Positions 46,782 through 64,000 of a DNA stretch of 64,000 nt are shown here, piece after piece (the first letter of the stretch is position 1; every line of letters starts with the position of its first letter). The stretch is taken from contig JAIDWS010000035.1 in assembly GCA_029059055.1 (NCBI GenBank), forward strand, positions 8,670 through 72,669. The letters are read 5' to 3'. The notes below the pieces were generated by a model. That model made no database searches and was not told where the DNA came from. It was given only the letters and a program-made list of their open reading frames with translations. This DNA comes from Alphaproteobacteria bacterium (GTDB lineage: Bacteria > Pseudomonadota > Alphaproteobacteria > Rs-D84). The position numbers and the translations under genes were made by a program.

Positions 46782-47210
46782 TTATTTGGTCTTTGGTTGA
46801 TGTTCCTGGCACAATTGGCACACCGTCTTTGCAAAGATATCCTGTACCCGGTCGACCAGGGCACGATATTGACTGCATGTGTGACAATGCCCACCCGGAC
46901 ATCCGATACAATCACATTTACCGTTGTCGTTATGGGTGCTGTTGACAACATGCGCATGCCACAGACCGCACAACCGGGTTTCATTGGGCTGCATTTAACG
47001 CGTCCTTTCGTTCAATTTCTTGCGCAGGGCAATCTTGTGACACGTATCTGTCGGCATAACCGGGCGCGGTCCCCAAAAGACCATACGCAACCACGATACG
47101 TCGCAACAATATAATTTTCCCGTATTATAGTCGCGCGTGCTGCTTTCGCAATTTTGACAAATTTTTTTCTGCTGGCCACAACATGCCAACATTTCACCAT
47201 CTTGTTCCAT
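46782..47210 (-). pseudogene. Cys-rich reading frame split by an in-frame TAA (46995-46997), giving two ~70-aa ORFs with CxxC motifs; possible nonsense-disrupted gene or a coupled gene pair
   Basis: ORFs 46995..47210 and 46782..46994 share a frame and are separated only by TAA followed directly by ATG. Confidence 0.3.
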
Positions 47211-47213
47211 ATG

Positions 47214-48020
47214 TTATTCCCCTATTTTTATATCTGCGCCACGCTGGCCATTGACAAAGCTTTTCCAATCCATCGGCTTTTTCCCGGCGGGCTGGATGGT
47301 CAAAATGTCCAATTTTCCATCATGGACGCGCGTCTGCAAAATCTTGACATCCATGCCGTTAATTTTCGTCCGCCCCGCCCCCAGCGCACGTACCTGGTTA
47401 TGAATATCGCGGGCGCTGCGCGTCCAATCAATGATTTCATCCGCCCCGGCAAATTTACGTGTAAATGTCACATCCCCCGATTGCGGCACCGGCGGAAAAT
47501 CCCCGGGCCGGGACAAATATTCGATTAACATTTCCGCCCCGATTTCCGACACACGGCGTTCGACATCTGCGTTGGTATCGTTTTCGCCGATATCAAACGC
47601 GCGCCGCATATATACATCACCTGCATCCATTTCGGCGGTCACCTGCATCAAGCAAACTGCCGATGACGCATCCCCGTTGAATATGGCGGTCCGTATCGGT
47701 GACGGCCCACGGTATTGGGGCAAAGAACTGGGGTGAATATTCACGCACGGCGCCGATTTCAAAACATTGTCGCGCAATATCACGCCATACGACACCACGA
47801 CAATCATGTCGGGATTGTAATTATATTCACCGATATTGGTATGCACATTCAACCCATGCGCATCGGCCCATTGATGCACCGGTGACGGGGTCAAGACTTG
47901 CTTGCGCCCGACCGGTTTTGGCGCACGGGTAAACACCGCGACAATTTCATGCCCGGCCGTCCGCACCGCATCAAAAATCGGCACGACAAAATCGTTTGTC
48001 CCCATTAAAACCAGTTTCAT
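47214..48020 (-). CDS. fmt: Methionyl-tRNA formyltransferase
   Basis: MKLVLMGTNDFVVPIF..., ...NIHPSSLPQYRGPSPI... Confidence 0.9.
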   Translation of the reverse strand: MKLVLMGTNDFVVPIFDAVRTAGHEIVAVFTRAPKPVGRKQVLTPSPVHQWADAHGLNVHTNIGEYNYNPDMIVVVSYGVILRDNVLKSAPCVNIHPSSLPQYRGPSPIRTAIFNGDASSAVCLMQVTAEMDAGDVYMRRAFDIGENDTNADVERRVSEIGAEMLIEYLSRPGDFPPVPQSGDVTFTRKFAGADEIIDWTRSARDIHNQVRALGAGRTKINGMDVKILQTRVHDGKLDILTIQPAGKKPMDWKSFVNGQRGADIKIGE

Positions 48021-48523
48021 GATTTTCTTCTCCGCACTTTGCGCATTAACATTTCCCGCTTAATCGGGGACAGATAATCGATAAACAGTTTTCCATCCAA
48101 ATGGTCTGTTTCATGTTGCACAATACGTGCCGGCAATCCGGACATCTGGGCGCGCATTTTTTTACCGGTTTCATCCGTCCATTCAACATCAACAGATTTT
48201 GGGCGCACCACATTGGAATACACCGGCAAATTATCGGCGCCCAATACGGACAGGCATCCTTCTTCCATGACGCATGTATCGCCGCTGCGCGCAGTGATGA
48301 CGGGATTTAACATTTTGAACACCGTATTGCTGTCGGGGTCCATCATGACCAAGAACCGCTGTAATAATCCCACCTGGGGGGCGGCCAACCCGACCCCGTT
48401 TTGGGCATGCATCATACGCACCATTTCATCCATCGCGTCCAAGATTTCCGGGGTGATTTTTTCAACCGGCGCACAGACCGACCGCAACACCAAATCCCCA
48501 CAAAGTTTCATTTGCAACATCAA
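48017..48523 (-). CDS. def: Peptide deformylase
   Basis: GVGLAAPQVG, EGCLS, HETDHLDG motifs. Confidence 0.9.
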   Translation of the reverse strand: MMLQMKLCGDLVLRSVCAPVEKITPEILDAMDEMVRMMHAQNGVGLAAPQVGLLQRFLVMMDPDSNTVFKMLNPVITARSGDTCVMEEGCLSVLGADNLPVYSNVVRPKSVDVEWTDETGKKMRAQMSGLPARIVQHETDHLDGKLFIDYLSPIKREMLMRKVRRRKS

Positions 48524-48562
48524 TAATTCCTTTTATAATGGATTTTATCAAAGGATTGGGAA

Positions 48563-49432
48563 ATGACAACTTATATTTTAATCTTGCTGGTATTGATTGT
48601 TGTGCTGTTGATTGCGGTGTTGATGCGGCCTGTGACGGTGGATTTGGCATCCCTGCGCGAAGATAATGCCCGTCTGCGCGAACGTCTGGCGGAACGCTTG
48701 GGCGCATTGGCGCAAAACGCAACGGAATTAAAGAATATCAGTGCCGACATTGCCAATTTTAAAAACATCCTGATGGGCAATAAACAGGCCCGCGGCACAT
48801 TCGGCGAACGCCAACTGGAAGATATTGTGGCCGACATCATGCCACCGGAAACATACGCGTTTCAGTGTGTTTTGGAAACAGGCGTGCGCCCCGATTGTGT
48901 TATTCGTTTGCCATATCCGCCGGGCGACATGATTATCGACAGTAAATTTCCACTGGAAAGCTATGCCCATCTGCACGAAGACAATATTTATCGCAAACAA
49001 TTTGAATTGGACGTACGCAAACACATCGACGCCATCGCAGACAAATATATTATTCCCGGCCGCACGGCGGAATCGGCAATGATGTTTATCGCATCGGAAT
49101 CGATTTTTGAAACATTGCATCGCGAATTTCCGGGCGCGGTTGATTATGCCGCCCGGAAAAAGGTGTTTATCGTATCCCCATCCACCCTGTGGGCGACATT
49201 GAACACCATTCGGGCGGTTCTGTCGGATATCAAGATAAAACGTGTCGCCGCGCAAATTAAAAAAGAATTGGATTACCTGTTAACAGACCTGGGACGATTG
49301 GCGGACCGTGCGGGCAATCTGCAACGTCATTTTGACCAAACCACATCCGACATTGAACAATTGCAAACATCGATAAAAAAGATTGCACCGCGCGCGGAAA
49401 AATTACGGGAACTGGATTTCGGTGAAGATTAA
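48563..49432 (+). CDS. rmuC: DNA recombination protein RmuC (short form)
   Basis: N-terminal TM, coiled coil, GERQLEDIVADIMPPETYAFQ...CVIRLP... RmuC core. Confidence 0.7.
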   Translation: MTTYILILLVLIVVLLIAVLMRPVTVDLASLREDNARLRERLAERLGALAQNATELKNISADIANFKNILMGNKQARGTFGERQLEDIVADIMPPETYAFQCVLETGVRPDCVIRLPYPPGDMIIDSKFPLESYAHLHEDNIYRKQFELDVRKHIDAIADKYIIPGRTAESAMMFIASESIFETLHREFPGAVDYAARKKVFIVSPSTLWATLNTIRAVLSDIKIKRVAAQIKKELDYLLTDLGRLADRAGNLQRHFDQTTSDIEQLQTSIKKIAPRAEKLRELDFGED

Positions 49433-49454
49433 TTTCCGGTCCGCCCCAGCGCCA

Positions 49455-49484
49455 CAAAAAAACACCGGCAAATGCCGGTGTTTT
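49455..49484. terminator. Bidirectional terminator, hairpin caccggcaaatgccggtg (copy 3 of the family)
   Basis: Between convergent rmuC and the RND pump gene. Confidence 0.6.
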
Positions 49485-49485
49485 C

Positions 49486-52400
49486 TTACTTCTTTTGGGA
49501 TTTGTTTATCTTGCGCTTTTTAAACAAATGCTTTACCCGGGTGCGCAATCCTTCCATCAAGAAGAACAACGCAGGCGTCAGCGTAAATGTCCAAATCAGC
49601 GATGCCAACATCCCCCCAATCATCACCGCGGCCATGGCGACCTTGGTTCCATCGGTACTCCACATCTGGGGCAACATCCCTGTGATAACCGCAATTGACG
49701 TCATCAGAACCATGTTCTTTTTTTCGGTCAATTCCGTCCACAATGCCACGCGCGGCACCGCACCGTTGGCAATACGGGCAATGGTCGGTTCCAACACCAA
49801 AATGTTGTTATTCACCACCAACCCCACCAACATAACGAACGCCATCATCGCCCCGACGTTCATCGTCGCCCCCGACAGGAACATGATAATAAACACGCCT
49901 GCGAAACTGGTGATAATGGATGTTGCAATGGTGAACGGATGCACCATAGAATTCAGAATCGCCGCCAACAACATGAATGTCAAAATTGTCGCCAACAAGA
50001 AAGCCTTGCCGATTTCACCGGCGGTTTCATCCTGGGTTTCGGACATACCGCCAAATTCGGCGCGATATCCGGTTTTCCATTCCATGGCATCCAGACCGGC
50101 CTGAATCTTTTGCTGGACGGGTCCCATGGTGGATTTACCGATATTGATATCGATTTCTGTAATTCTGGTTTTGTCCAGACGATTGATATTGGGCGTCGCC
50201 GGCAAGCTTTTAATTTCGCCCAATTTGGACAATGCCACCATGCCTTTTTGTGAATTGACATAGACATTGTCAAACATCGCCACGTTCTTGAACGATTTGT
50301 CCAGTTCCAGAATAATCGGATATTCTTCACCGCGTTCTTTGTATTTGTAATCGTCATTCCCGTACAGCGCCGCACGCAACGTCGCCCCGGCGTACGCATT
50401 CTGAACACCCCAGAAATTCATCTTGGCCTGGTCGGGGATGAACTGGATTTCATTATTCGGTGCCGGCACCGCCAAAACAGCCGTTTGCACTTCTGGAATT
50501 TGGTTAATCATATCCAGAATCTGGGCGGCATAGGCTTCGCGGGTGGCGTCATCTTCGCCATAGATGTTCAAAACCATGTCCGATGTCTGGGATGCAGACA
50601 TGCCGGCGCCGGCCTTGATTTGGAATTCCGTATCGGGAATTTCGGCCAACCGCGGTAAAATCTGGCGGGCCAATTCTTTGTCCGATGTGCGACGCGGGTT
50701 CCCCAGATCCGCCAATTCCAATTTAATGGTGATATTCTGCAAACCGCGTTCACCGATTTTAACAGTTGATGCGGTTACATCGGGAAATTCTTTCAGTACA
50801 TCTTCGACCTGGGCCGCGATATGCGCAGATTTTTCATACGTCGCCCCCATCGGCGCACGTGCCGTAATGGTAATTTCATTTGTATCGGTCGCCGGCGAAA
50901 ATTCATTTCCGACAAACCGCATCAGCATTGACGACGCAATCAGAATCACAAACGCCCCCAACACAACGCGTCCCGGATGACGGAACTGATAATCGAACCA
51001 CTGGCGCAGGGGTGTTTTATCCACAACGACCGTCTGGGTTGTATCGATTTTCTGGGGCTTGGGTTCACGAATACGCAAGAACTGGGCAATCATCATTGGT
51101 GCCAACGTAAACGAAAACATTAACGACAACAGCGTCAGATACACAACCGTCATCCCAAATTGGGACATAAATTGCCCCGCAATACCGCCCATAAAGGCCA
51201 ACGGTAAAAACACCACGACGTTTGTTCCGACACCGGCCAAAACGGATACGGCAACCTTTTTGGTTCCATCAACCGCGGCGCGTTGCGGATTTTTCCCATT
51301 GCGCATTTCTTGCAATGCGGATTCAATCAAAATAATGGCATTGGACACCAACGTCCCCAGCGCAGACGAATACGCCAACAAAGTCATCGCATTGATGGTA
51401 AACCCACTGCCGTCCATAAAGAAGAACCCAGCAATCAACGATGCCGGAATCACGACACCGGCGATGATGGTCGACCGCCAATTGCGTGTAAAGACCAACA
51501 ATACCAAAACCGTAAAGATAATCCCCAGGATAATCCCGTAAATCGTGCTGTATGTTTCATCGGCAATTGATGTCGACGAATCCGACACGATAATCATTTC
51601 CGAACCCGGGAAACGGGTTTGCATATCGGCCTGGAACTGGGACAATTTTTCGCGCAGTGCGCCGGAAATCTTAATCGCGTTACCATCGGATGCCTTGACC
51701 ACGGATGCAACCACGACATCTTGGCCGTTGTACCGGGCGCCGTTTTCAATATCACGCGCGGCATCGGTTACGGTCGCAATATCTGCGATACGGAATTTCT
51801 GACCTTCCATGGTGACGATTTGTTGATTGCGAATTTCATCAACGGACGCGAATTCCCCGATAAAGCGCACGTTGGATGACGACGCCCGCCCTTCGATTTT
51901 ACCGCCGGGAACATTCAAATTCTTGCTGCCCAGGGCTGATACCACATCCATAATCGTGACGCCGCGTGCCGCCATTAATTCGGGATCCATCTGAATGCGC
52001 ACGGCGCGTTCACGTCCACCAAACACAGACACACTGGCGACCCCGTTAATCGCGGTGATTTTATTCGACAAATTGTTGTCGACATATTCTTCTAAATCAC
52101 GCGCATCGGCCCCACGCAAAACGATATCGACGACCGATTCTTGCAACGGGTTTAATTTTTCAACAACCGGTTGCTTTAACGCATCGGGGAATTCCGACCC
52201 CAACGCATCGATTTTTGTTTTAACTTCGGCTGCTTTGTCATTGACATTAACCCCCAGATTAAATTCAGCCATCACATACCCGCCGTTTTCAAACGCCTGG
52301 GACGTGATTTTTTTCAATCCGGCCACTTCGGAAATCGCGTCTTCGGCTTTTTTAATGACCTGGGATTCGATTTCAGACGGCGCGGCACCGGGATAAACAA

Positions 52401-52539
52401 AGTTCGCCGTCACCATCGGGAAATCCAACGATGGCGTACGTTCAATGTTCATCTTGGGAAAAGACACCAAACCCAACACAACCCAGAACATAACAAACAT
52501 CAGGGTGGTTATCGGTCTGCGAACGAAAAAGTTTAACAT
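49486..52539 (-). CDS. RND efflux transporter permease (HAE1/AcrB family)
   Basis: 1017 aa, 12 TMs with two large periplasmic loops. Confidence 0.9.
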   Translation of the reverse strand: MLNFFVRRPITTLMFVMFWVVLGLVSFPKMNIERTPSLDFPMVTANFVYPGAAPSEIESQVIKKAEDAISEVAGLKKITSQAFENGGYVMAEFNLGVNVNDKAAEVKTKIDALGSEFPDALKQPVVEKLNPLQESVVDIVLRGADARDLEEYVDNNLSNKITAINGVASVSVFGGRERAVRIQMDPELMAARGVTIMDVVSALGSKNLNVPGGKIEGRASSSNVRFIGEFASVDEIRNQQIVTMEGQKFRIADIATVTDAARDIENGARYNGQDVVVASVVKASDGNAIKISGALREKLSQFQADMQTRFPGSEMIIVSDSSTSIADETYSTIYGIILGIIFTVLVLLVFTRNWRSTIIAGVVIPASLIAGFFFMDGSGFTINAMTLLAYSSALGTLVSNAIILIESALQEMRNGKNPQRAAVDGTKKVAVSVLAGVGTNVVVFLPLAFMGGIAGQFMSQFGMTVVYLTLLSLMFSFTLAPMMIAQFLRIREPKPQKIDTTQTVVVDKTPLRQWFDYQFRHPGRVVLGAFVILIASSMLMRFVGNEFSPATDTNEITITARAPMGATYEKSAHIAAQVEDVLKEFPDVTASTVKIGERGLQNITIKLELADLGNPRRTSDKELARQILPRLAEIPDTEFQIKAGAGMSASQTSDMVLNIYGEDDATREAYAAQILDMINQIPEVQTAVLAVPAPNNEIQFIPDQAKMNFWGVQNAYAGATLRAALYGNDDYKYKERGEEYPIILELDKSFKNVAMFDNVYVNSQKGMVALSKLGEIKSLPATPNINRLDKTRITEIDINIGKSTMGPVQQKIQAGLDAMEWKTGYRAEFGGMSETQDETAGEIGKAFLLATILTFMLLAAILNSMVHPFTIATSIITSFAGVFIIMFLSGATMNVGAMMAFVMLVGLVVNNNILVLEPTIARIANGAVPRVALWTELTEKKNMVLMTSIAVITGMLPQMWSTDGTKVAMAAVMIGGMLASLIWTFTLTPALFFLMEGLRTRVKHLFKKRKINKSQKK

Positions 52540-52569
52540 TTAATTTCTCCTATCCTGTTGGACCATGAC

Positions 52570-53190
52570 TTATTTTTTCATCCGAACGCGCGCGCCGTCG
52601 GCAACCTGGCTGGTGATGACGATATCACCATCGCCCAGACCGTCGATGACCATGACGTTTTCACTGTCGCTGCGCCCTGTTTTAACCGTGCGCGCACGCG
52701 CCGTGCCGTTGTCATAAATCATCACGACATCCCCATGCAGTGCATGCGTTGGAATAAAATATCCCGTTGCGCGATATTCGGCCATATTCAATCCGTCTGT
52801 TACACCGCGCGTACGTACAACATACATACCGGTATCCAAATCAATATTCTGGGCAACCGATACAATTGTCCCGTCACCGACGGTTTGGCCAACCCGGAAA
52901 TGTCCCAATCGGGCGCCGGACACCAATGCCCGGTTATTTTTGACCGACAACGGTTCACGTAACACACCGGCATCGCGGTGCATTTCCATCACTTCGACCA
53001 CGGCACCGTTTTCCGCTGCATCACGGGTGGGATTAAAAACGAACATGCGATTCTGGGCCGCCACCATGGCGAACCGAAACACCACCCACGCCACCAGTAA
53101 TACAACACCGGCCGCATACATTCTTTTCTTGGTGCGGGGCCGACGGACCCAGCCCCCCAATGTGTTTAATTTTTCCTGAAAATTATTCAT
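52570..53190 (-). CDS. Efflux periplasmic adaptor (membrane-fusion protein), atypically short (206 aa) and apparently lacking the alpha-hairpin
   Basis: N-terminal TM; beta-barrel and membrane-proximal-like C-terminus. Sits inside the tolC/RND operon. Confidence 0.5.
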   Translation of the reverse strand: MNNFQEKLNTLGGWVRRPRTKKRMYAAGVVLLVAWVVFRFAMVAAQNRMFVFNPTRDAAENGAVVEVMEMHRDAGVLREPLSVKNNRALVSGARLGHFRVGQTVGDGTIVSVAQNIDLDTGMYVVRTRGVTDGLNMAEYRATGYFIPTHALHGDVVMIYDNGTARARTVKTGRSDSENVMVIDGLGDGDIVITSQVADGARVRMKK

Positions 53191-53193
53191 TGT

Positions 53194-54531
53194 TTATTCC
53201 CCTATTTTCTTGACCGATTCCGCTGCCATAACAATCTTGTACTTGGAATTCAGCAACGCCATATCCAACTGATACAGACCGGCGGACGCTTCGGACAATT
53301 CAATTGCAGACGTCTGTCCGGCGGCGAAACGTTCCTGGGAAAATCTGTACGCTTTGGCGGCCAGATTGCGCGCTTCTTGCAATTTGTCCATATTCCCGCG
53401 CAGATGGTTATACTGTAACACAGCGTTATTATATTCTTCGGTTTTCATTTTTTTGGATTTATCCAAATCTTGGCGTGCGGCTTCTGCATCCATGGCATCC
53501 ATCGTTGCGTTCGCGCGTACGGCACCACCACTGAATATCGGCATTTGCAACGCCAATCCCCAATACGCAGACTGGGACCCGCTGCGTTCAAACATCGTAT
53601 CGTATTCCGGCCCCATTGCCATAAAACTGTACGATGCGGTTGCCGCCAATGTGGGCAAATATCCCGCGCGGGAAGATTTTGCCTTGGATTCATACATCTG
53701 AATCTGCTGGTTCAAGATATCCCATTCCGGCGTATTTTTCAGCGGCCCCGCGTTCAGTCCCGCAAACGTCGCCGGGAAATTATCCGTCAATGTGATTTCC
53801 GTATCCATATCAATACCGGCCAGAATTTTCAGCATTCTGTACGCGGTATCGCGATTGAATTCGGCATCCGACAGATTAATTTCCTTGGTCGCGATATCCG
53901 ATTCAATTTTGACCAAATTGGCACGCGACGCACGTCCCGCCGCCCCCAGGTTACGCCGCGCATCACGCGCATCGCGCAAATCTGCGGCGGAAATCCGAAC
54001 GATTTCATCGGTCATTTTGGCGGTCCAATAAACATTGGCGGCACTGTACCGCACCTCGCGCAGGGTCATTTCACGACTGGACTGCGTCATTTTAATGGCG
54101 GCCTTGACACTTTTGACCGCATTGCCGATTTTGCCAAACGTATAAATCGGTTGGGACGCACTGACCCCCACCATCAAGATATTATCCGGAATTTCGATAT
54201 GCACCGATTGGTCTTTCAGGCTTTCCGAAATCAGTCCCCCAAACGCCGGCGGCAAATCAATACCGGTTGATTTGGACGGATTTTCCACATTTACCATATT
54301 CATATAAGTGGCCGACCCGTCGATTTTAAACCACCGATTTGCATTGGCCGCCGTTAATTGTGCCTGGGCCTTTTTCAAATTGGCATCGGCCTTTTTCATA
54401 TCTTGCGATTCCGCGACAATTTTTTCAATCGCATCGTTCAGCGACAAATCCAACGCATATGCGCCGGGCGCAAAAAAGACTGGGCTTAACAATCCCAGCA
54501 TTGATAAGTGTTTTATTTTAAGCATTACCAA
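53194..54531 (-). CDS. TolC-family outer-membrane efflux protein
   Basis: Signal peptide and duplicated coiled-coil/beta repeats. Confidence 0.8.
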   Translation of the reverse strand: MVMLKIKHLSMLGLLSPVFFAPGAYALDLSLNDAIEKIVAESQDMKKADANLKKAQAQLTAANANRWFKIDGSATYMNMVNVENPSKSTGIDLPPAFGGLISESLKDQSVHIEIPDNILMVGVSASQPIYTFGKIGNAVKSVKAAIKMTQSSREMTLREVRYSAANVYWTAKMTDEIVRISAADLRDARDARRNLGAAGRASRANLVKIESDIATKEINLSDAEFNRDTAYRMLKILAGIDMDTEITLTDNFPATFAGLNAGPLKNTPEWDILNQQIQMYESKAKSSRAGYLPTLAATASYSFMAMGPEYDTMFERSGSQSAYWGLALQMPIFSGGAVRANATMDAMDAEAARQDLDKSKKMKTEEYNNAVLQYNHLRGNMDKLQEARNLAAKAYRFSQERFAAGQTSAIELSEASAGLYQLDMALLNSKYKIVMAAESVKKIGE

Positions 54532-54967
54532 GCTCCATTTTTTGTAAAACTTCCTTTACCGTTTTTAACGCCCCCGTTAACTTTGCTTCGTCCGCCGGGG
54601 CCAGCTGTGAAAACAACTGTTCAATATGACTTTGAAAATTTTCCATGGCATTGACGGCGATTTTTTCACCCTTGTCCGTGACGGCATACCACACATTGCG
54701 CCGGTCGTTTTCATCAATTTCACGGACCAGCAATCCGTCCCGTTCCAGTTTACGAAACGCCGCACATAAATTCGGCGCCGACACCATTTCCCGTCGTGCA
54801 ATATCCTTTAACCGGCCGCGGCCGCCCATGTGCAACCGCACCAGAATCCGCAACAGTTGACGCGGATACCCGGATAAATACGTGGGTTCAATGCGCATTT
54901 TCCCGGCCAACCGGTCCAAAGTGATAATATTATCTTCCATCAAATGAACAAATTCCTTGCGCGGCAT
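54518..54967 (-). CDS. MarR family transcriptional regulator
   Basis: wHTH ...LLRILVRLHMGGRGRLKDIARREMVSAPNLCAAFRKLERDGLL. Confidence 0.8.
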   Translation of the reverse strand: MPRKEFVHLMEDNIITLDRLAGKMRIEPTYLSGYPRQLLRILVRLHMGGRGRLKDIARREMVSAPNLCAAFRKLERDGLLVREIDENDRRNVWYAVTDKGEKIAVNAMENFQSHIEQLFSQLAPADEAKLTGALKTVKEVLQKMELGNA

Positions 54968-55139
54968 TTAATTATCCTTTATAATAGAAAATGTATTCCA
55001 ATTATTAAAAACGTGAATCATTATATGTTTTAATGATTTAAATGCAAGCACAAATTTGAATAAATTTCTATTTTTTTTACGGTTTGTTATTTTTATTATT
55101 GCAAAACCGCATCAGATATTTATAATCAGTGTTGCTTTT

Positions 55140-55213
55140 TGGGGTGTCGTCTAATGGTAGGACAAGAGATTTTGGTTCTCTTTATCATGGTTCGAATCCG
55201 TGCGCCCCAACCA
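55140..55213 (+). tRNA. tRNA-Gln (anticodon TTG)
   Basis: TGGGGTGTCGTCTAATGGTAGGACAAGAGATTTTGGTTCTCTTTATCATGGTTCGAATCCGTGCGCCCCAACCA; anticodon loop TTTTGGT. Confidence 0.8.
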
Positions 55214-55251
55214 CAGTTTCAAAACCCGCCCATCAGGGCGGTTTTGTGTTG
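55199..55251 (+). repeat. att-like direct repeat 1 (includes the tRNA-Gln 3' end and a terminator-like hairpin)
   Basis: 52/53-bp repeat (2 mismatches) with 55374-55426; a partial third copy lies at 56255-56343. Confidence 0.7.
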
Positions 55252-55373
55252 GGCGCGGGCCACGGTTCGCAATCGCGACGAATGTCGCCGGTTCGACTAT
55301 GAGTTGGCGTTTGGCACGCGCGCGGCGAACGCCATACGAATGCCCCGCAGGCGCACCGCGCCGAGGGAATTGA

Positions 55374-55472
55374 GTGCGCCCCAACCATAGTTTCAAAATC
55401 CGCCCATCAGGGCGGTTTTGTGTTGGATTTGCAACCAACGCACAGAGTTCGAAAGTTTAGTTTTGAAAATGG
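55374..55472 (+). repeat. att-like direct repeat 2 (extended unit of about 87 bp)
   Basis: gtgcgccccaaccatagtttcaaaatccgcccatcagggcggttttgtgttgg plus a tail shared with copy 3. Confidence 0.7.
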
Positions 55473-55557
55473 CTAAATTCTGCTAACATTCGAACCCGGA
55501 CACTAAACATTCACAAACAAGCATATCTATGATACAATCACGGCAAAGGATTATATT

Positions 55558-56148
55558 ATGGCTGCAAAGACAATTTATATTTTTAGACATGGTCAAACAG
55601 ACTATAACGCCACAGGGCGCGTTATGGGTCGGTTGGATATACCATTGAACGAAACAGGGATACAACAGGCAACAGAACTGGCCAATAAAATGTCGGGCAT
55701 TGATATTAAGGCAATATATTCTTCGCCACTGTCACGTGCGATGCAAACAGCACAAATCGTGGCTAACAAAATCGGCGTAAAGATAACACCAAATGACGGG
55801 TTAATGGAACGACATAATGGGAATCTGCAAGGGCATATTGTTCATATAACAGATAATCCCGAACAATATCAGACCGACTATAAACAAACAGAACTTGTTT
55901 TGCCGGCAGAACAATTAAACGATGAAAATTGGCGACCCGAAGGCGGTGAATCACGAATAGAATGCTTTAAACGCGCCCAACAAACGATTACGGACATCAT
56001 AAAAACATCCCCTTATGACACAATTGCCATATCAACACATGGCGGACCAATGGTCGGGATATTGGATTTAGTTGGCGGCACATCAGAGCGCATTGGAAAC
56101 TGTGACTATGTAAAATTAACCTTTGATGGTAAAAAGTTAGAGAGATAA
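55558..56148 (+). CDS. Histidine phosphatase (phosphoglycerate-mutase-like) family protein
   Basis: IYIFRHGQTDYNATGR (RHG catalytic motif); ...STHGGPM... Confidence 0.75.
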   Translation: MAAKTIYIFRHGQTDYNATGRVMGRLDIPLNETGIQQATELANKMSGIDIKAIYSSPLSRAMQTAQIVANKIGVKITPNDGLMERHNGNLQGHIVHITDNPEQYQTDYKQTELVLPAEQLNDENWRPEGGESRIECFKRAQQTITDIIKTSPYDTIAISTHGGPMVGILDLVGGTSERIGNCDYVKLTFDGKKLER

Positions 56149-56254
56149 AATTTAACATAGGGCATCCGTTGCCCTATGTTTTTAATACAGACTTCACTGA
56201 TTCAATTTCATCTCTCATTTTGATTAAATCAGTTCGAAAATTGCTAGTCAGACA

Positions 56255-56343
56255 CAACCACAGTTAAAAAATCCGCCCACCGGGGCGGTTTTTAGTTGAA
56301 TCTGCAATCATCGTGCCAAGTTCGAATGTTTGATTTTCAAAAT
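56255..56343 (+). repeat. att-like direct repeat 3 (degenerate copy)
   Basis: aaccacagttaaaaaatccgcccaccggggcggttttt..tgcaatcatcg..agttcgaatgtttgattttcaaaat parallels copy 2. Confidence 0.55.
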
Positions 56344-56391
56344 CGTTAATTTTTGATAACTTTCGAACTTGTTTATGGTATAATATTCTAT

Positions 56392-57489
56392 ATGAAAACA
56401 GATAGTTATACAAAAGCCATAGACAATATTTATAATCGGATTGGCCATGCCGTAGTACAAGGTATACCAACCTTAGATCATATTATGGGTGTTGAAAATA
56501 TGTCTGAAGCAGATAAAATCTGGTACGAAGCATATAAAAAATACGGCAACCGAAATCACACATGGCAAGATTTTAGAGATATGTTTTATGGTGATGTTGA
56601 CGTTATGCAAAAGACAGTTGTACACTGGAAAACATGGGACGAAATAAATAACACGTTATCACAAGCATATGATTTAGTGCCAGAAATAAGAAGATTGATG
56701 AGAGAATATGGTATTAACTCTATCAATGTGACCAAATTAGAAGAATACAAACAATACCCTGATTTAGTATCAGTCTGCAAAAAATATCGTGAAATTGGTA
56801 GTATGGCGTATCAAAACTATTCTACATTTAATCCACAGATTGCAAAACTGGAAAAAGCGTTCGAAAAAAAATCGAAACTGATAGCGGTCGATGACAAAAA
56901 AGCAAAAATTGATTTAATTGTAGAATACCTAGAAAAAATGGATGAGTATGTAGATTTGCAAAATGGCGATTTTGTCGTTGCAGAACGCATAGAAACATAT
57001 CGTGAAATTATATTAAAAGACCAACAAATATTAAAGCTGGCAAAAGATTTTGATAAAATATCTGGCTCACAAAAGGTTGATTTAGCACGTATGATTTTAA
57101 ACAAAAGTGCAAAAATTACAGGCACACCAACAGGCCAAGTTATTCAAGATGACGCCCCGGCTGGCCCGCATGTCCTAACCGGTAATCAAGTCGCCGGATA
57201 TGTTGAGAATCGTAAAGAATTTTTATTCAGAGGTGATGATTTAACGACCCTATGGACCTTTTTGAAATATTTGGTCCATGAAGATGCTCATAGAATAGAT
57301 TACTATAATGCAGAATATGGGATGATTGGAACGCAACTTATGAAATTTGTGAATGATAATTATGTTAATAATGCAGACATAGATGTTGAATTGTATCGTA
57401 AATTTGCCACAGAACAAAGTTCATATTATCTTGATCGCACTACGGCTTCTGCTTTAGAATATGCAATAATGCATCAATCTCGTGGCTAA
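56392..57489 (+). CDS. Hypothetical protein (366 aa) in the AT-rich island
   Basis: AT-rich; no recognisable motif. Confidence 0.4.
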   Translation: MKTDSYTKAIDNIYNRIGHAVVQGIPTLDHIMGVENMSEADKIWYEAYKKYGNRNHTWQDFRDMFYGDVDVMQKTVVHWKTWDEINNTLSQAYDLVPEIRRLMREYGINSINVTKLEEYKQYPDLVSVCKKYREIGSMAYQNYSTFNPQIAKLEKAFEKKSKLIAVDDKKAKIDLIVEYLEKMDEYVDLQNGDFVVAERIETYREIILKDQQILKLAKDFDKISGSQKVDLARMILNKSAKITGTPTGQVIQDDAPAGPHVLTGNQVAGYVENRKEFLFRGDDLTTLWTFLKYLVHEDAHRIDYYNAEYGMIGTQLMKFVNDNYVNNADIDVELYRKFATEQSSYYLDRTTASALEYAIMHQSRG

Positions 57490-57621
57490 TCTTAATTAAA
57501 TCAATTCAACTACGCATAGGTAAGCCAAACGTAGTGTCGGCGAACCGTCAGGAATACCGCACTGAAGCAATACAGGACTGAATAGAAGTGTTTCTAGCGT
57601 TTTTGTTCATCGAAGAAGTAA

Positions 57622-58829
57622 TTAATCATAAAACACAATTAACTGCTCAAGAGATATATTAACACCTGCTTTTTGTAATTCTCTGATATTGGTTTCATAA
57701 AGCTTTGTTAATATATCGCGTTTTTCATTATCTGTTGCCAAATGTACCTGCCGATGACAGACAGGACACAGAGCAACGATATTTTCAACAATATCAATAT
57801 TTACATCAAACTCATTGCGTTTACAAAACGGTATCAAGTGATGCCCTTCTACAAATGGCATATTGTTAGCTTTGGCTGTAAATGTTCTATGACGCGGATT
57901 CACTTCACACATATAACGACTGCGCAATTTTCGCGCTTCTTTAACATTTGGATTGGCATGTAATAACGTATCTACATCGTCATCATTGTCTAATCCTAAA
58001 GCTAATCGTTTCTTTAATAATTCTTGCTCTGCAATTCGCCCATCTTGATAGTCTATCGCTAATTTGTTTATCTGTAATGCTCTGTTATAATTCTTATATT
58101 CCTTTACATTAGATAAATCTTGTTTATCAAAATACAAACCATCTATCTGTGTAAGATGCTTCCCGGTTTCCTTTTCATAAAAAGACCTTTTAAAGGGATA
58201 CAAGAATCCATATTCAGACACAAAAATTTTTAGCGGTATTCTGAACTGGTCGTTCTTTGCCTTACTATTTTTTTGCAATACTCGTGGATTAAAATTAAAA
58301 AATTGTCCAGTCATATTAGACAGTGTCATATATTTACGCCTGGCTAAATTTGGATATTTTTTCTTTTCCCAATCAACAGTTACCAGTTTTCTACTAAAAT
58401 CCAGTGAACAACGAGCATTAAATAAACCAGAAACAAAATATCGAATACATTCGTTTGAAAAATCCATTGTAGCTTTTTCAATATACCCATAAATGCGCGC
58501 CCTGCCTATTTCAGTAGTATCATCTAAACTATTAGTTTCAGTAAATTTGACAGAACAAACCCAAGATGTCTTATTAGACGAACAATCTATATCATCAGAT
58601 AATATCGCAGTTCCTTTGATAAAGTCTGCAAGAACTTGCCTGTTTGGCTCATTTAATTGCGTGTATTCATTATCACTAAAATTCTTGCGTATTCTAGTGC
58701 CTGTCCTTCCAGACGAATATGCCAACACATAACCATTTTTTACAATTGGCCAACCATAAACCATGCCCAAAAAGAATGCATATTTAGGATTTTTTTTGGA
58801 TTGTTCAAGTAATTCATTAAATGTCATTA
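57622..58829 (-). CDS. HNH-nuclease-domain protein, putative restriction endonuclease
   Basis: C-terminal ...FVEGHHLIPF...NIVALCPVCHRQVHL (HNH, Zn-binding Cys). Adjacent to two DNA methyltransferases. Confidence 0.55.
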
Positions 58830-59557
58830 AAAATCCTTTTATAAGCCATGTTATAATATGTGTCGTCCAATTCAATACCAATAAAGTTACGATTTTGTTT
58901 TATGCACGCAATTCCTGTGCTACCGCTTCCCATAAATGGGTCCAAAACCGTATTGTCTTTGTTTGTAAATATCTTGACCAACTCTTCCATCAAAAATACC
59001 GGCTTTTGAGTTGGATGACCTAACCGTTCTTTACCAGATGGACACGGACATTTTATTTCTGGCCTTAAATAGCTATCAGTAGAATTGTTAAACGTCCATT
59101 TTGACTTTCCTTTAACACACCATATAGCCAATTCATAGTCGGCCACAAAACGACTATCCATATTACGTGGCATAGGATTTGGTTTTAACCATCGTATCAA
59201 GTCTTTTACGGCATAACCTTTGGCTTCTAAATATTTTGCAATATTTCCTATATTCAAAAAACTATTAAAAACAATAATATTACCACCGTCTTTTAACAAT
59301 TTATCCGCAACATCAAGCCACGTAAATAAATCAAAGCCCTTATCCCAGGTTCCAAAATCAATCCCTTGCCGTTTAGCATTTTTCATCGTGGAAAAATTAT
59401 TGTCTTTTGAAATATTGTATGGTGGGTCAGTTATTATTGCATCGACTTTTATTTTATCTTTAATCAGACCAGCCATGACATTCACGCAATCACCGTGTAA
59501 TAATTGTACGGATTCTCTTTGAAACCAATCAGTAAAATATTGTTCTTTTTTAGTCAT
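58817..59557 (-). CDS. DNA methyltransferase (N6-adenine/N4-cytosine class, DPPY motif)
   Basis: AIITDPPYN (motif IV) precedes the SAM-binding motif: beta-class amino-methyltransferase. Confidence 0.8.
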   Translation of the reverse strand: MTKKEQYFTDWFQRESVQLLHGDCVNVMAGLIKDKIKVDAIITDPPYNISKDNNFSTMKNAKRQGIDFGTWDKGFDLFTWLDVADKLLKDGGNIIVFNSFLNIGNIAKYLEAKGYAVKDLIRWLKPNPMPRNMDSRFVADYELAIWCVKGKSKWTFNNSTDSYLRPEIKCPCPSGKERLGHPTQKPVFLMEELVKIFTNKDNTVLDPFMGSGSTGIACIKQNRNFIGIELDDTYYNMAYKRIFNDI

Positions 59558-60612
59558 TGTCAGCCTTAATTATTTCCAAAGCAATTGCTTTCGCTAATTT
59601 TGGGGGCACAGCATTGCCAATTTGTTTTATTACAGATGATTTATTCCCATAAAAAATATAGGCGTCGGGAAACGATTGAATCCTTGCCGCTTCGCGTGGG
59701 GTGATAGAACGATTTAAGAACGGATGATTATTCTGTCCATTAGACGGTGTATCAAATCTCGTCACAATCGTTGGCGATGGCTTATCTTTCTCTAATCTGC
59801 ACCAGGTTCCACCGAATGTTGATTTAGTTAGATGTTCCTTTGGTAAAAATTCTTTACCTTTTTCAGGCGGAATCATTGCTAGTCTCTGTATCGCAACATC
59901 TGAATGTTTTGTCGCCATATGGTTGTATAACTTCTTGCTATTTGCTCTCAATTCTTTTTGATATTTAGATTCAGACTTGTTTTTATAATCAGCAACAAAT
60001 TCCCCTTCGCCAGATTCTAAATAGGCCAAATCAGATATCGCATCCCAAACCGAAACAATTTTCTGTTTTGTATCCATTTTTGGTATTTTTGCTTTACCAT
60101 CACGCGAACCTATAAATACGGCTCTACGTCTAGTTTGCGGAACACCAAAATATCTTGCATCCAAAATACCATAATCAACTTTATATCCCTGTTCCCGTGC
60201 TTCTTTTAAAATCAAATCTAAGAAATAGCCATCAGCGGTCCCCAACAAGGCAGCAACATTCTCAATAACGAAATACTTAGGCTTGAAAAAAGAAGTGTAT
60301 TTAAAGAATTCTTTAAACAGATAATTTCTTTCGTCATCTTTACCGAGACATTTTCCACGAGTTGAAAAACCCTGGCAAGGCGGCCCTCCAACTATAATAT
60401 CAATCGGCTGTTTAAGGGCTTTTGCAACTGCTTTTATGTCTAGTTTGCAAATATCACCAATGAAAACTTTTGTGTTAGGATTGTTTTTAGCATAAGAATC
60501 TGCAATAGACGGCTCTAATTCTAACGCACCAACTAGATTAAAACAGCCAGTTTGTTCAAAACCAAGACTCAGCCCACCAACGCCTGCGAATAATTCTAGC
60601 AGATTTAACTTT
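59550..60612 (-). CDS. DNA (cytosine-5)-methyltransferase
   Basis: LELFAGVGG (motif I), GGPPCQGFS (motif IV), ENV (motif VI). Real start MRKLNLLELF... Confidence 0.85.
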
Positions 60613-60867
60613 CTCATTTCTTTTCCGTCTCTTTGAGAATGAATTATAATAAAGTCAATAAAAAAATGATATAAAAAAATTATATCATCCCATATTCTAC
60701 TTGTTATCCGTGGCTTCAAGTAAACAAGTACACACAAACTGTGTATACATAATGAGCAAGATCCACATAAAAAGAAAATATACGTATACAGAAAGCTCGG
60801 GATGCCCTTTACACACAAATTACTAAGCCACCCAACAAAAATAAAACCCGCCGGGTGGCGGGTATGA

Positions 60868-62493
60868 TTATTGCGACAGCACCCCCGTATTCAACCCCAG
60901 GAAATTGATTACCGCCGCAATCTGCACATCGTTTTGATTTTCACGCACATTTGATGATGCCAACGTTACTTCGCCACTGATACCCAATTCACGCGCCGGA
61001 TTGACATAGACCAATTTCATATCGGATTTCACAACATTGATTTTGGTCCCGTTTTTCACCGCCATCGCCCAGAACCAGACATCGTCGGCCGACGGCGCCA
61101 AATGCTGGAACAAATCTGCGCGCACCACATCCCCGCACAGGCAATGCGGCGGATACAACACACCCCCGACACCGGTTTGAAAATTCCCATACGACGGGGA
61201 CACACCCTGGATTTCAGCATGCCACATATTGTATGGCAAAATATTGTTCTGATACCCCAATCCCACACGGTGCGCCCGCATGCAATGCACCATATCGGGA
61301 TTCTGCAAATACGCGTCATACAATTTTTCCACCAGATATTCCGGATAAAAGATATCATCATCAACCGTTATAATAATGTCATCGGGATATTGCTGTAATG
61401 CCGGCACCAACTTGGTATACGAACGCATATCCGTGCACCATTGAATACGTATTCCCATCCGAACCAGGCGCAATACCGATTCCGGTAAATCCTTTTCACG
61501 ATTGGGGAATTTATCCGCCCCCAGCCACAACACAATTTCATCCGGCACCACGGTTTGTTTCAGCAACGAAAACAACGTATAATGAATATCGCCCATCCGT
61601 GCGGGAAACGACGTCAACGACACGATAATTCTGGGACGTCGCCCCGACGGCGCATCGGCAATCGGCGCACGCCACGCGTCAATTTCCCCATCAATGGCCG
61701 ATTTGGAAATATGCGGAATTTCATTCAATCGGCGTTGCCGGTCGGCGGCCAAGGCCGCCGGATTTAATCTGTCCCACGAAATACCACGTCGCACAATCTG
61801 TCCGGGATTACCCGCGATGACAACACCCGCATCGCCATAATCACGATAACAGACCGCACCACCGCTGACGATGGAATGATTGTGAATACGGGCACGTTTG
61901 GTGATTCTGGCGCCTTCGCCAATCCAGACATGGTCGCCGATAACAACGGGGCCGGACGGCTGGTTTAAAATTTCGCGGGTGGCGGCATCCAAAACAGAAT
62001 GCCCATCCGATGCCCAGATATTAATGGAATTCGATAACATACAATCCCGCCCGATGATGCAACCGCTGTGTTCCGCCAGCTTTATATTCACCCCATAACA
62101 GGTCGTATGCGACCCGATTTTACAAACCTGGCCTGCACCACAACGGCAATCAATGCGTAACCGCTTTAAACAGGGCGACGTGCCAATATCGACCGTCACA
62201 TCATCATTTTCGATGACTATCTTGGATTTTTCGGCCACAATCGGTAATTCCAGCGTGACCGTATTATTATTTCCCACAATAATGATATCCAATCCCGCAA
62301 TGCGCCGTCCCCGCGCCAGCGGCATCCGCACCCCGCCATCAATGACAAAGATGCGGTTGTTTTTGCCGCGCACCCGATACCGGGCGCCACGCACCAGATG
62401 ACGCGGCCCCTTTTGATAACTGATGATTTTCATGCCACAAAAATAAATGTGGCGCCGACCGTTATTGAAACGTTGTTTACAGAATATTTTCAT
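60868..62493 (-). CDS. Bifunctional left-handed-beta-helix acyltransferase / glycosyltransferase-like protein
   Basis: N-terminal hexapeptide repeats (..VIGDHVWIGEGARI..); C-terminal domain with an ...ITVDDDIFYP... DxD-type motif. Confidence 0.5.
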   Translation of the reverse strand: MKIFCKQRFNNGRRHIYFCGMKIISYQKGPRHLVRGARYRVRGKNNRIFVIDGGVRMPLARGRRIAGLDIIIVGNNNTVTLELPIVAEKSKIVIENDDVTVDIGTSPCLKRLRIDCRCGAGQVCKIGSHTTCYGVNIKLAEHSGCIIGRDCMLSNSINIWASDGHSVLDAATREILNQPSGPVVIGDHVWIGEGARITKRARIHNHSIVSGGAVCYRDYGDAGVVIAGNPGQIVRRGISWDRLNPAALAADRQRRLNEIPHISKSAIDGEIDAWRAPIADAPSGRRPRIIVSLTSFPARMGDIHYTLFSLLKQTVVPDEIVLWLGADKFPNREKDLPESVLRLVRMGIRIQWCTDMRSYTKLVPALQQYPDDIIITVDDDIFYPEYLVEKLYDAYLQNPDMVHCMRAHRVGLGYQNNILPYNMWHAEIQGVSPSYGNFQTGVGGVLYPPHCLCGDVVRADLFQHLAPSADDVWFWAMAVKNGTKINVVKSDMKLVYVNPARELGISGEVTLASSNVRENQNDVQIAAVINFLGLNTGVLSQ

Positions 62494-62841
62494 AATCAAA
62501 ACTATATCGTCCCCCATCCCGCCATTCAAGAAATAATATAAAAAAACATTGATTTCGCCAATTTGCATTGTTAAAATAATTATTGAACACACAGGGATGT
62601 GCGTTCAGGGTCGTCAAAAAGCCCATCTACAAGCAATGCGAATGCATTGTATCCGCAACAATATGCGGCGCAAATGGCGCCTTTTATTGTAACACCCCGC
62701 ACGGTCGGGGAGCCGTCAGTTATAAAACAGGCTTTTCACCAAAGGCTGGCGGGGTCACACTTGTGGATGATTTTTTGAACTCCCTGACCATCAGATTCCT
62801 TGATGGTCTTATTCATTTAGAAAACAAACCAGGAGTCAAAA

Positions 62842-63588
62842 ATGAAAAAACTTATCATTACATCAACTGCCGTCATGGCAATGTTTACCGGGGCATCCCA
62901 CGCAGACGGATTTTATATCAGCCCGCGCATCGCATGGTCGGACATGCACATTGACGAAACGCGCATCGAAAAAAAGCCCGTCAATGGTGCATGGTCGGAT
63001 TTTGCCGGGGCCAAGCATGAATCTTGGTCTGACAACGACGGCAATCTGGCCCCGAAATTCGCGGTCGGTTATGATTACAACACCAACAAATACGGTATTT
63101 TGGGGCTGGAAATTGAATATGGTCAAACGTCCAATCATTTTGACCCCACACGCAGTGACGTTGATTTTGACGGCAATCTGTTGAACGACAGTGACAGCCG
63201 CGATTTCAAATACAGTGAATCCACATTGTCATTGAACGCGACATACGGATATGATTTCAAATACGTCATCGGGTTTGTCACGGCCGGGATTGGTTATACA
63301 ACAATTGATTCCGAAAACAATTTCCGCAGCGGTACATATTGGTGGGAAACCCGCGACAGCGAACGTAACGCATCATGGAATATTGGTGCCGGCATTGCGG
63401 TTCCGGTTACGAAAAATGTTTCGGTTACATTGGCATATCGCTATACAGATTTGGGCAATGTTAAATACACCAACCGTATGTATCACGAAAATGCCCGTGC
63501 TGGTAATAATGGGATTGAACGCCACTTTGATTCCGACGTTGATTTAAGCAAACATGAAATCATTGCCGGGATGAAGGTCGCCTTTTAA
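62842..63588 (+). CDS. Outer-membrane beta-barrel protein (OmpA/OmpW-like 8-strand barrel), signal peptide
   Basis: MKKLIITSTAVMAMFTGASHA; alternating strands; C-terminal ...AGMKVAF. Confidence 0.6.
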   Translation: MKKLIITSTAVMAMFTGASHADGFYISPRIAWSDMHIDETRIEKKPVNGAWSDFAGAKHESWSDNDGNLAPKFAVGYDYNTNKYGILGLEIEYGQTSNHFDPTRSDVDFDGNLLNDSDSRDFKYSESTLSLNATYGYDFKYVIGFVTAGIGYTTIDSENNFRSGTYWWETRDSERNASWNIGAGIAVPVTKNVSVTLAYRYTDLGNVKYTNRMYHENARAGNNGIERHFDSDVDLSKHEIIAGMKVAF

Positions 63589-63752
63589 CCCCACCCAATC
63601 AACACACACAAACGCGGACAGCTTTAAGGTGGGCATAACGCCCACCTTAAACATTTGGCAAGCGCAACTGAACAATTCACGAACTGATGACATCCACGAT
63701 TTATTGCAATTTGGCAAAGAGATTAAGGCGTTTTAAGCAAACATCACCACAA

Positions 63753-64000
63753 TCAAATTTGAAAAATGGTGTCGATTCTTATATTCTTTGCAAACATTTC
63801 ATCATGCGATACCAGTAATATTGCGCCTTGATATTGATTAAGGGCATTTTCTAATATTGCGATACTTTTTATTTCCAGATTGTTCGTTGGCTCGTCCAAT
63901 ATCAACAAGTCGGGTTGCGTGACACCACCCAGTATCGCCGCCAATGTTGCCTTTAATAATTCCCCGCCAGATAATGTTCCAACACGTCGCCCACCTGTAT
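63753..64000 (-). CDS. ABC transporter ATP-binding protein (ABC-F-like), C-terminal part only; N-terminus lies beyond the window
   Basis: Walker [13 protein letters not shown] and H-loop ...LLVSHD... Confidence 0.6.

Follow-up and report, generated by a model that had tools for sequence, protein, structure and literature searches.

The 64,000-nt stretch of alphaproteobacterial DNA analysed here (contig JAIDWS010000035.1; "the window"), which is part of an 89-kb metagenome contig (ENA ERZ14208469 NODE_14), carried a tRNA-anchored island that was probably built by serial site-specific integration at the 3' end of tRNA-Gln(TTG) and is now integrase-less. Outward from the tRNA, the array consists of a 135-nt structured module (unit A), a 0.87-kb histidine-phosphatase cassette, a ~1.2-kb cassette with the gene for a 365-aa protein (Hyp365) and a 3.07-kb restriction-modification (RM) operon (Table 1). 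The inserts started at 55214, directly 3' of the tRNA, and were delimited by repeats of the tRNA tail and by two junction modules, designated "composite" (proximal) and "P-left" (distal).

Table 1. Features of the tRNA-Gln(TTG) island and of the adjoining variable region. Positions are those of the window; HMM, hidden Markov model; GC3, GC content at third codon positions.
Feature	Position	Strand	Evidence or remark
tRNA-Gln(TTG), anchor of the array	55140-55213	+	ARAGORN; Rfam tRNA 57.7 bits
Repeat copy 1: tRNA tail (last 14 nt) and terminator-like hairpin 1 (stem 55226-55241)	55200-55252	+	53-nt unit
Unit A, structured module with a terminus that mimics the 3' end of tRNA-Gln (135 nt)	55253-55387	+	Covariance model
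Composite 2: repeat copy 2 (core and hairpin 2, 55374-55426) and inverted GTTCGAA pair (55447-55456/55486-55495)	55373-55495	+	HMM, E=5e-37
Cargo 1: histidine-phosphatase superfamily gene (196 aa)	55558-56148	+	Pfam His_Phos_1, 2.4e-41; GC3 0.355
P-left at the distal end of cassette 1 (..TCAATTTCATCTCTCATTTTGATTAAATCAGTTCGAAAATTGCTAGTCAG), then core 3 (ACACAACCA, 56252-56260)	56190-56260	+	HMM, alignment
Composite 3: repeat copy 3 (diverged core and hairpin 3, 56247-56299) and inverted GTTCGAA pair (56320-56329/56359-56368)	56246-56368	+	HMM, E=4e-34
Cargo 2: Hyp365 gene, lineage-restricted family (365 aa)	56392-57489	+	Homologue search
P-left remnant, truncated, end of cargo 2	57474-57507	+	Direct repeat D3 with 56202-56235, 76%
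Type II RM operon, three overlapping genes (3.07 kb)	57620-60687	-	Pfam, NCBIfam, PADLOC
HNH nuclease	57622-58827	-	Pfam 2.1e-4; PADLOC REase_II 2e-6
N6/N4 methylase	58817-59557	-	Pfam N6_N4_Mtase 3.5e-44, profile positions 1-220 of 221
C5 cytosine methylase	59550-60620	-	Pfam DNA_methylase 3e-75, profile positions 2-324 of 324
AT-rich spacer, no detected homologue; fall in GC ends here	60688-60845	.	GC profile, homology
Terminator hairpin, bidirectional, abutting the stop codon of the next gene	60846-60863	.	Terminator scan, both strands
Hexapeptide-acetyltransferase/GT2-like gene (566 aa)	60868-62568	-	Pfam, NCBIfam
Outer-membrane protein (OMP) beta-barrel gene	62842-63588	+	Pfam, NCBIfam
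Ribosomal-protection-type ABC-F gene, 3' part in the window	63753 to beyond 64000, continues to ~65135 (L005:7434-8816)	-	NCBIfam

The last 9 nt of the tRNA (55205-55213) formed a common "core", CCCCAACCA. The initial annotation had reported a duplication of the tRNA tail and the hairpin downstream of it, and this was confirmed as a 53-nt unit whose second copy, at 55374-55426, was identical to the first at 51 of 53 positions (96%); its 27-nt hairpin core occurred exactly twice in the window, vs. 0.00 times expected from shuffled sequences. The tRNA tail itself was matched at 14 of 14 nt in copy 2 (55374-55387) and at 10 of 14 nt in copy 3 (56247-56260). The degenerate third copy proposed at the same time also proved to be real, though its span had to be corrected to 56247-56299 (77% identity), within a stretch of 123 nt over which copies 2 and 3 were alike (55373-55495 vs. 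56246-56368, 76% ungapped).

Each cassette was preceded by a composite made of the tRNA tail with its core, a long hairpin and the inverted pair GTTCGAAAGT-N31/32-ACTTTCGAAC, composite 2 being the proximal junction of the histidine-phosphatase cassette and composite 3 that of the Hyp365 cassette. An HMM of this module matched both window copies, as well as full-length copies in eight loci of other genomes (L012, L016, L017, L018, L024, L028, L029 and L034). The island was the only part of the 64-kb window with the inverted GTTCGAA pair, and in L029 the pair stood beside a gene on the opposite strand; its interpretation as a genome-wide promoter or operator motif was dropped. The distal junctions had a different architecture, "P-left + core + hairpin", in which the consensus ..TTGCCCAAT..AATTCAGTTCGCGAATTGCAC.. 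was followed by the core. The P-left module measured ~50 nt, and the tail, hairpin and GTTCGAA pair together ~130 nt.

Copy 3 had been described as a degenerate repeat of the tRNA tail; the comparison placed it in a conserved distal junction carried by the element, so that it is more than a decayed tRNA end. An HMM built from eight distal sites in other genomes, with the window excluded, matched positions 56222-56298 (E=1.4e-12), which shows an element-borne junction and no chance match, and the window P-left could be aligned with the junctions of L029, L041, L017, L034, L052 and L053. An empty/occupied pair was provided by L028 and L029, the second of which equalled the first plus a ~1-kb single-gene insert (an outer-membrane-protein gene) at the tRNA tail, with the previous composite displaced and now located behind P-left. 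Small inserts, down to a single gene, carried two common junction modules at at least three tRNA targets, which is less ordinary than a tRNA island. A further conserved stretch of ~90 nt (..AAAACTAATGAAAATCTGCTCTAACTGGTCTTTTTATTCAAAGTGTTTGYGGTCGGCCAGC..) was observed 3' of the GTTCGAA pair in L028:8345-8430, L029 (down 1190-1285), L033, L017 and L016.

Under serial integration, recombination at each insertion would have taken place in or beside the final 9 nt of the tRNA or its mimic. The incoming element would have brought a new tail, hairpin and inverted GTTCGAA pair next to the tRNA, and the earlier junction would have been pushed outwards behind the P-left end of the element. Since the displaced junctions stand behind P-left, the repeated tRNA tails may be read as attL-like and attR-like junctions. 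The initial annotation had taken the duplicated tRNA 3' ends as the sign of a site-specific integration hotspot, and the successive copies as a tandem array of serial inserts; both proposals were supported.

The composition of the island differed from that of its surroundings. GC content fell from 0.494 in the backbone (45000-55139) to 0.394 in the histidine-phosphatase segment and 0.348 over 56247-60834, and GC3 was 0.26-0.30 for the island genes vs. 0.54-0.56 for the flanking genes. These profiles bore out the AT-rich segment noticed after copy 3 on first reading and support a horizontal acquisition of this part. The gene calls also stood as first made (His_Phos_1 between copies 2 and 3, then a hypothetical protein without domains, an HNH nuclease, an N6_N4 methylase and a C5 methylase, from Pfam, NCBIfam and PADLOC). 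The AT-rich segment had its content described correctly, but it was not one unit: at least two separate origins, the Hyp365 cassette and the RM operon, were distinguished.

The absence of an integrase from the island, already noticed in the initial annotation, was upheld. Pfam detected no recombinase domain, and no Phage_integrase domain, among the island open reading frames (ORFs); from 55214 to 64000, genes for an integrase or for replication were detected by neither Pfam nor NCBIfam; and a tblastn search of the whole window with the serine recombinase of the relatives returned only an antisense-tRNA artefact, tyrosine integrases not having been scanned window-wide. The array, lacking an integrase, cannot mobilise itself. 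As a tRNA-associated island, the region thus showed the tRNA 3' position, the internal tail repeats, the composition and the variability, but no integrase of its own.

For comparison, 44 loci of other species were collected with the adjacent efflux gene as the anchor. The titles of related loci included "uncultured Alphaproteobacteria bacterium" and "Candidatus Enterousia sp.", and their sources were animal and human gut; the host is accordingly an uncultured gut alphaproteobacterium. The backbone GyrA-MerR-APH-tRNA-Glu(CTC) ... tRNA-Gln-MarR-OEP-MFP-RND was conserved, and tRNA-Gln adjoined MarR-OEP in more than 40 related loci. The gap between tRNA-Gln and tRNA-Glu ranged from 49-51 nt (L042, L050) up to 6.7 kb (L029); it measured 283 nt in L007, the closest relative (OEP 91% identical), and about 10.2 kb in this genome. 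None of the window cargo was found at this site in any other species examined, and the 117 ORFs located 3' of tRNA-Gln across the loci fell into 94 clusters. Relatives did not show the same content with uniform composition, which would have spoken against an island; they carried different content at tRNA-Gln, and the locus is therefore a hypervariable hotspot.

Within the species, the arrangement is probably stable, as an independent assembly (L006, Logan SRR14411247) kept the same order from APH through the RM genes to the 365-aa gene (GT-RM-Hyp365). This assembly bears also on the idea that assembly or binning produced the AT-rich segment as a chimera, with the join at the repeated sequence, to which we attach very little probability. 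The metagenomic source of the contig would agree with a chimera, as would three other assemblies of the same species that break at or within the tRNA gene; L006, however, joined backbone-like APH, ABC-F, OMP and GT566 to the RM operon and Hyp365 with identical proteins, the 89-kb contig was recorded for two samples, and unrelated assemblies had the same operon in a tRNA setting of this kind.

The cargo that other species carried in this hotspot included, in L010, L040 and L046 (e.g. L046:2932-4290), a Slam surface-lipoprotein translocator with adjacent paralogous proteins without domains. This tandem trio of ORFs had been considered as tyrosine recombinases, an assignment that was dropped after Pfam returned Slam and proteins without hits; two Pfam batches of 10 candidate ORFs in which integrases were sought contained none. 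Ankyrin-repeat, Fic, NERD, OLD-like ATPase and polysaccharide-synthesis genes were also found as cargo, as were the OMP beta-barrels of L029.

The RM operon, which made up most of the AT-rich DNA of the window, also occurred in other loci. The gene order C5 methylase, N6/N4 methylase, HNH nuclease was kept in L052, L053, L054 and L055, with amino acid identities to the window of 84% (L052), 57% (L053 and L054) and 39% (L055), and the nucleotide homology of these operons to the window was confined to about 57620-60687. The operon followed tRNA-Tyr in L052 and tRNA-Gln(CTG) in L053 and L054. In L052 and L053 it had a tRNA and composite on one side and P-left, core and hairpin on the other, the core tracking the local tRNA (CTCCCACCA for Tyr in L052, CCCCAACCA for Gln in L053), and its GC content was 0.31-0.35 vs. 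0.48-0.50 in the flanks. The same AT-rich operon therefore occurs beside other tRNAs within the same bounding modules, and is independently mobile.

From its complete methylase domains and its syntenic nuclease, the operon is predicted to be a complete Type II RM system. PADLOC assigned MTase_II, with each of the two methylases matching one half of a fused Type II methylase profile (PDLC03279), and the HNH domain resembled McrA (PDB 6ghc, 1.7e-6). The system is probably Type IIS-like, with a combination of genes that we take to resemble the systems of the Eco31I and MnlI kind. The nuclease family was rare (21 homologues in 5.8 billion proteins, none of them named). A promoter-like site for the operon was located at 60707-60679.

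In relatives, recombinases were present at the very site occupied by the window cassettes. Genes for a large serine recombinase (LSR; Resolvase, Recombinase and Zn_ribbon domains) were located immediately after tRNA-Gln in L018:1975-3510, L024:351-2006 and L047:1983-3536, and in frameshifted form in L043; LSRs with Resolvase, Recombinase and zinc-ribbon domains were also found in L056-L059, L063 and L076. Metagenomic relatives of these enzymes abutted, in antisense, tRNA-Gln(CTG), tRNA-Met, tRNA-Asn, tRNA-Arg and tRNA-Gln(TTG). The LSR ORF ran antisense into the tRNA gene and ended ...SSKV..KRQ..LSN...WLGRTDSNHDKENQNLLSYH, its last ~20 residues representing the tRNA read in reverse translation (tRNA-Gln, -Met, -Asn or -Arg), and the GTTCGAA half-sites coincided with the SSKV and LSN codons of the C-terminus, within the last ~50 codons. 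The composites shared this pair, at the same spacing, with the 3' coding end of the LSR; at P-left, the LSR reading frame would end WLGRVQFAN. Seven metagenomic contigs retained only the last 36-88 LSR codons beside tRNA-Gln, and these truncated ends suggest a graded series down to the non-coding composites of the window. The enzyme responsible would most likely be an LSR of the family found at the exact site in relatives, and the window cassettes would be non-autonomous or decayed derivatives of LSR elements.

Tyrosine integrases of the classical tRNA-targeting islands or phages, in place of serine recombinases, might have made the inserts: large tyrosine recombinases were located directly after tRNA-Gln in L009 and L040, and units A and B (the latter a second structured module, described below) had 14-20 nt of exact identity with the tRNA, as is typical of the att cores of tyrosine integrases. 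We consider this improbable, as the GTTCGAA pair of the composite and the WLGR... ORF read through at P-left tie the cassette junctions to the 3' end of the LSR.

Viral contigs scanned for the unit A tail and for the P-left motif gave no matches, and the single match of the GTTCGAA-pair pattern in viral contigs, in an LSR C-terminal fragment, was informative for its location, although the search itself had selected for it.

In L024 (136-264 vs. 1820-1955), L057:6480-6660 and L059:9660-9860, the LSR gene was located between the tRNA junction and an inverted intact attP-like copy, the reverse complement of P-left, core and the last ~125 nt of the LSR gene, which may form an invertible module; in L057 the distal core was of the Gln type although the tRNA was tRNA-Met. 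The inverted pair seemed to follow the T-loop of the target, being GGTTCAAAC/GTTTGAACC beside tRNA-Met with T-loop GGTTCAAATCC (L057:8600-8785; compare L056, L059 and L076) and GTTCGAA beside tRNAs with T-loop GGTTCGAATCC, in very few cases (L057 and a partial one in L058).

Several observations weigh against serial integration by such enzymes. The composites are non-coding and only the region of the GTTCGAA pair is common to them and the LSR genes, which makes the link to the LSR circumstantial. The variable region of the window has no recombinase, so that movement is not demonstrable in it. The RM segment had no significant distal junction and the P-left of the Hyp365 cassette was truncated; the hairpin at ~60841-60868, proposed at first as the right boundary, turned out to be the terminator of the neighbouring gene and matched the junction family only at a non-significant level (E=2.1), no significant tRNA-tail repeat being found with the junction HMM at the outer right edge. 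The hairpins flanking the inserts (L052, L053 and window copies 1 and 2) were more alike than a fixed core crossover predicts, making homologous recombination or gene conversion possible. Finally, since unit A is so common beside tRNA-Gln, it may be no insert but a native functional RNA. The anatomy of the array, the homology of its junction modules, the variability of the locus between species, the mobility of the RM operon and the presence of recombinases at the site in relatives are shown, while the position of the crossover, the recombinase that acted and any remaining mobility of the cassettes are inferred.

The likeness of the hairpins bears on a different history, in which the array was built mainly by homologous recombination, with DNA received by transformation, gene-transfer agents or vesicles and with the tRNA and the junction modules serving as homology arms. 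Hairpins flanking an insert were alike within a genome and different between genomes (L052, L053), as this history predicts, and it would agree also with the length of the repeats (45-130 nt) and with the lack of a recombinase in the window. It has, however, a low probability in our view: at different tRNAs a conserved, element-borne P-left adjoined a core that had switched to match the local tRNA, recombinase genes were located exactly at the site in relatives, and a double-crossover replacement would not yield direct repeats of the tRNA tail.

Unit A requires a separate account. The DNA between copies 1 and 2 had been read as part of a serial insertion or tandem islet array; it was no anonymous islet but a conserved structured module, with 42 occurrences in related DNA. 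The covariance model (R1) scored 123.6 bits at the window unit A and retrieved the 42 copies from 52 sources, all of them on the tRNA strand, most directly 3' of tRNA-Gln and some displaced to the distal side of cassettes; L031:8407-8543 and L111:9649-9786 were among them. Its final segment, the mimic GAGGGAATTGAGTGCGCCCCAACCA, resembled the T-arm, acceptor strand and CCA of a tRNA and also opened repeat copy 2. Covariation was detected at 21 of the 22 pairs, and 88% of the cells paired vs. 27-43% in slid controls, in an alignment fitted to the model; when nine copies were aligned independently with MAFFT, 11 of the 22 pairs covaried and 90% of the cells paired. The four or five covarying helices were accompanied by conserved unpaired motifs, including an invariant GGTTCGA. 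An Rfam search over 54900-61000 at E<=1 gave tRNA as the sole convincing match and left unit A without a family. Unit A is a candidate new structured RNA or single-stranded-DNA site. A search with nhmmer for a fragment of it after the 365-aa gene, at ~57541, gave no match even at E<=100.

Copies 1 and 2 might accordingly not be an integration scar at all, unit A being a native structured RNA gene after tRNA-Gln, with a tRNA-like acceptor end whose tail serves as a second landing site. This explanation, which we regard as possible though not the favoured one, fits the constant strand and the usual position of the copies, the strong covariation with its conserved unpaired motifs, and three loci (L096, L100 and L108) in which cassettes were inserted after unit A and not after the tRNA. 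However, unit A had direct repeats of the tRNA tail on both sides, as expected of an insert, and it occurred in tandem with unit B in either order (L030, L032, L098 and L111). The window copy was also 94% identical to that of L012, vs. 76% for a backbone protein of that locus, which suggests that unit A spreads horizontally, and the counts of G.U vs. A.C (39 vs. 25) settle neither the strand nor the molecule.

Unit B, which replaced or accompanied unit A in other species, was a module of ~145 nt with four consecutive hairpins, whose stems diverged between species yet remained complementary, and it too ended in the tRNA tail. It was found in L007, L012, L030, L032 and L034, about 40-185 nt 3' of tRNA-Gln (L007:9127-9273).

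The two cassettes of the window, which would be products of the serial integration favoured here, each carried one gene. The histidine-phosphatase cassette measured 873 bp from core 2 to core 3, with a terminator-like hairpin (56154-56180) downstream of the gene. Hyp365 had no match in Pfam, NCBIfam, PADLOC or PDB, and nothing usable on its function was obtained; of its 68 homologues, the three with a source name were all labelled as Alphaproteobacteria metagenome-assembled genomes. Its residues ~285-291 (57240-57260) read VHEDAHR, in which HEDAH is HExxH-like, and the protein could be metallopeptidase-like, which no profile supports. A homologue 84% identical to Hyp365 formed a single-gene cassette after tRNA-Gln(CTG) in L136 and L137, in the order composite, gene, P-left (E=5e-11) and then unit A. 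The homology of the window to the L136 cassette stopped inside P-left, at ~57507. A small serine recombinase (205 aa, Resolvase) and a helix-turn-helix protein were encoded just upstream of tRNA-Gln(CTG) in L136 (4420-5037), and the former is another possible candidate enzyme.

That tRNA genes harbour islands and that restriction-modification systems can be mobile is textbook knowledge, and a tRNA island with an RM system is ordinary; what sets this one apart are the unusually modular junctions, the single-gene cassettes, unit A and the LSRs that abut tRNAs. CIMEs (cis-mobilisable elements) related to the integrative and conjugative elements of Streptococcus thermophilus consist of att-flanked DNA without a recombination module and can be moved only in trans. 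The window resembled them in having att-like sites around integrase-less DNA, and differed in being an array of many small cassettes.

The closest known concept is the tRNA-seeded island of the tycheposon type. In Prochlorococcus, such islands arise from successive integrations and have partial tRNAs between the elements, and in a few per cent of tycheposons the enzyme is a large serine recombinase (bioRxiv 10.1101/2020.12.28.424599). The array shared with them the tandem elements next to a tRNA, the partial tRNA copies in between, the displacement of older elements outwards by newer ones, the remnants and the adaptive or defensive cargo. Unlike tycheposons, its units were far smaller (a single gene or 135 nt) and had no integrase or replication genes, there were two conserved junction modules, and the host is an uncultured gut alphaproteobacterium. 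Mycobacterial elements with serine integrases have been described as not located at tRNA genes, whereas those with tyrosine integrases mostly are (PMC10654092); the LSR family found here differed from the former in abutting tRNA 3' ends with its ORF running antisense into the tRNA. Compared with LSR elements themselves, the difference lay in the enzyme: relatives carried the three-domain LSR beside the junction, and the window had none.

Integron arrays resembled the window in their tandem single-gene cassettes, their conserved and partly structured junctions and their fixed platform. The array nevertheless lacked every integron-defining feature tested: it had no IntI, its junctions were the tRNA-tail composite and P-left (no scan with attC models was made), its platform was a tRNA and the enzyme of the relatives was an LSR. 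The cassette genes of the window also had upstream promoter-like sites, whereas integron cassettes are usually promoterless. A more far-reaching proposal, which we put forward as speculative and rather doubtful, is an integron-like system anchored on tRNAs, in which single-gene cassettes bounded by P-left and by the tail, hairpin and pair would be moved in trans by LSRs recognising the T-loop-like GTTCGAA, antisense at tRNA 3' ends, with unit A as an RNA or single-stranded-DNA mimic of the acceptor end that offers a second landing pad. If cassettes are mobilised in trans, they would give small-genome gut Alphaproteobacteria a compact route of gene exchange, the cargo at the site including defence systems, outer-membrane proteins, phosphotransferase-family proteins and a ribosomal-protection-type ABC-F. 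If true, tRNA-specific serine recombinases with definable att sites would also be added to the recombinase toolbox.

To the right of the RM operon the shift in GC was real, yet variable DNA extended beyond it, as judged against the closest relative, L007. None of the genes located at 60868-64000 was present in the inter-tRNA interval of L007 or of any other related locus, and the variable region reached tRNA-Glu(CTC) at ~65406-65480, past the end of the window. Next to this tRNA, which converges on tRNA-Gln, an inverted hairpin and GTTCGAA pair was found at ~65294-65399 (L005 about 7170-7275; composite HMM E=2.8e-8), and the variable region was thus bracketed by two facing junctions.

The 566-aa protein combined a hexapeptide acetyltransferase with a weak GT2-like region; its gene had a backbone-like GC content and was absent from the locus in all relatives. 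The OMP encoded at 62842-63588 showed a weak similarity to Adr, a rickettsial adhesin, which fell below the NCBIfam cut-off (9e-10), and the ABC-F protein passed the NCBIfam cut-off for ribosomal protection (388 vs. 380 bits), in a family that includes antibiotic-resistance factors.

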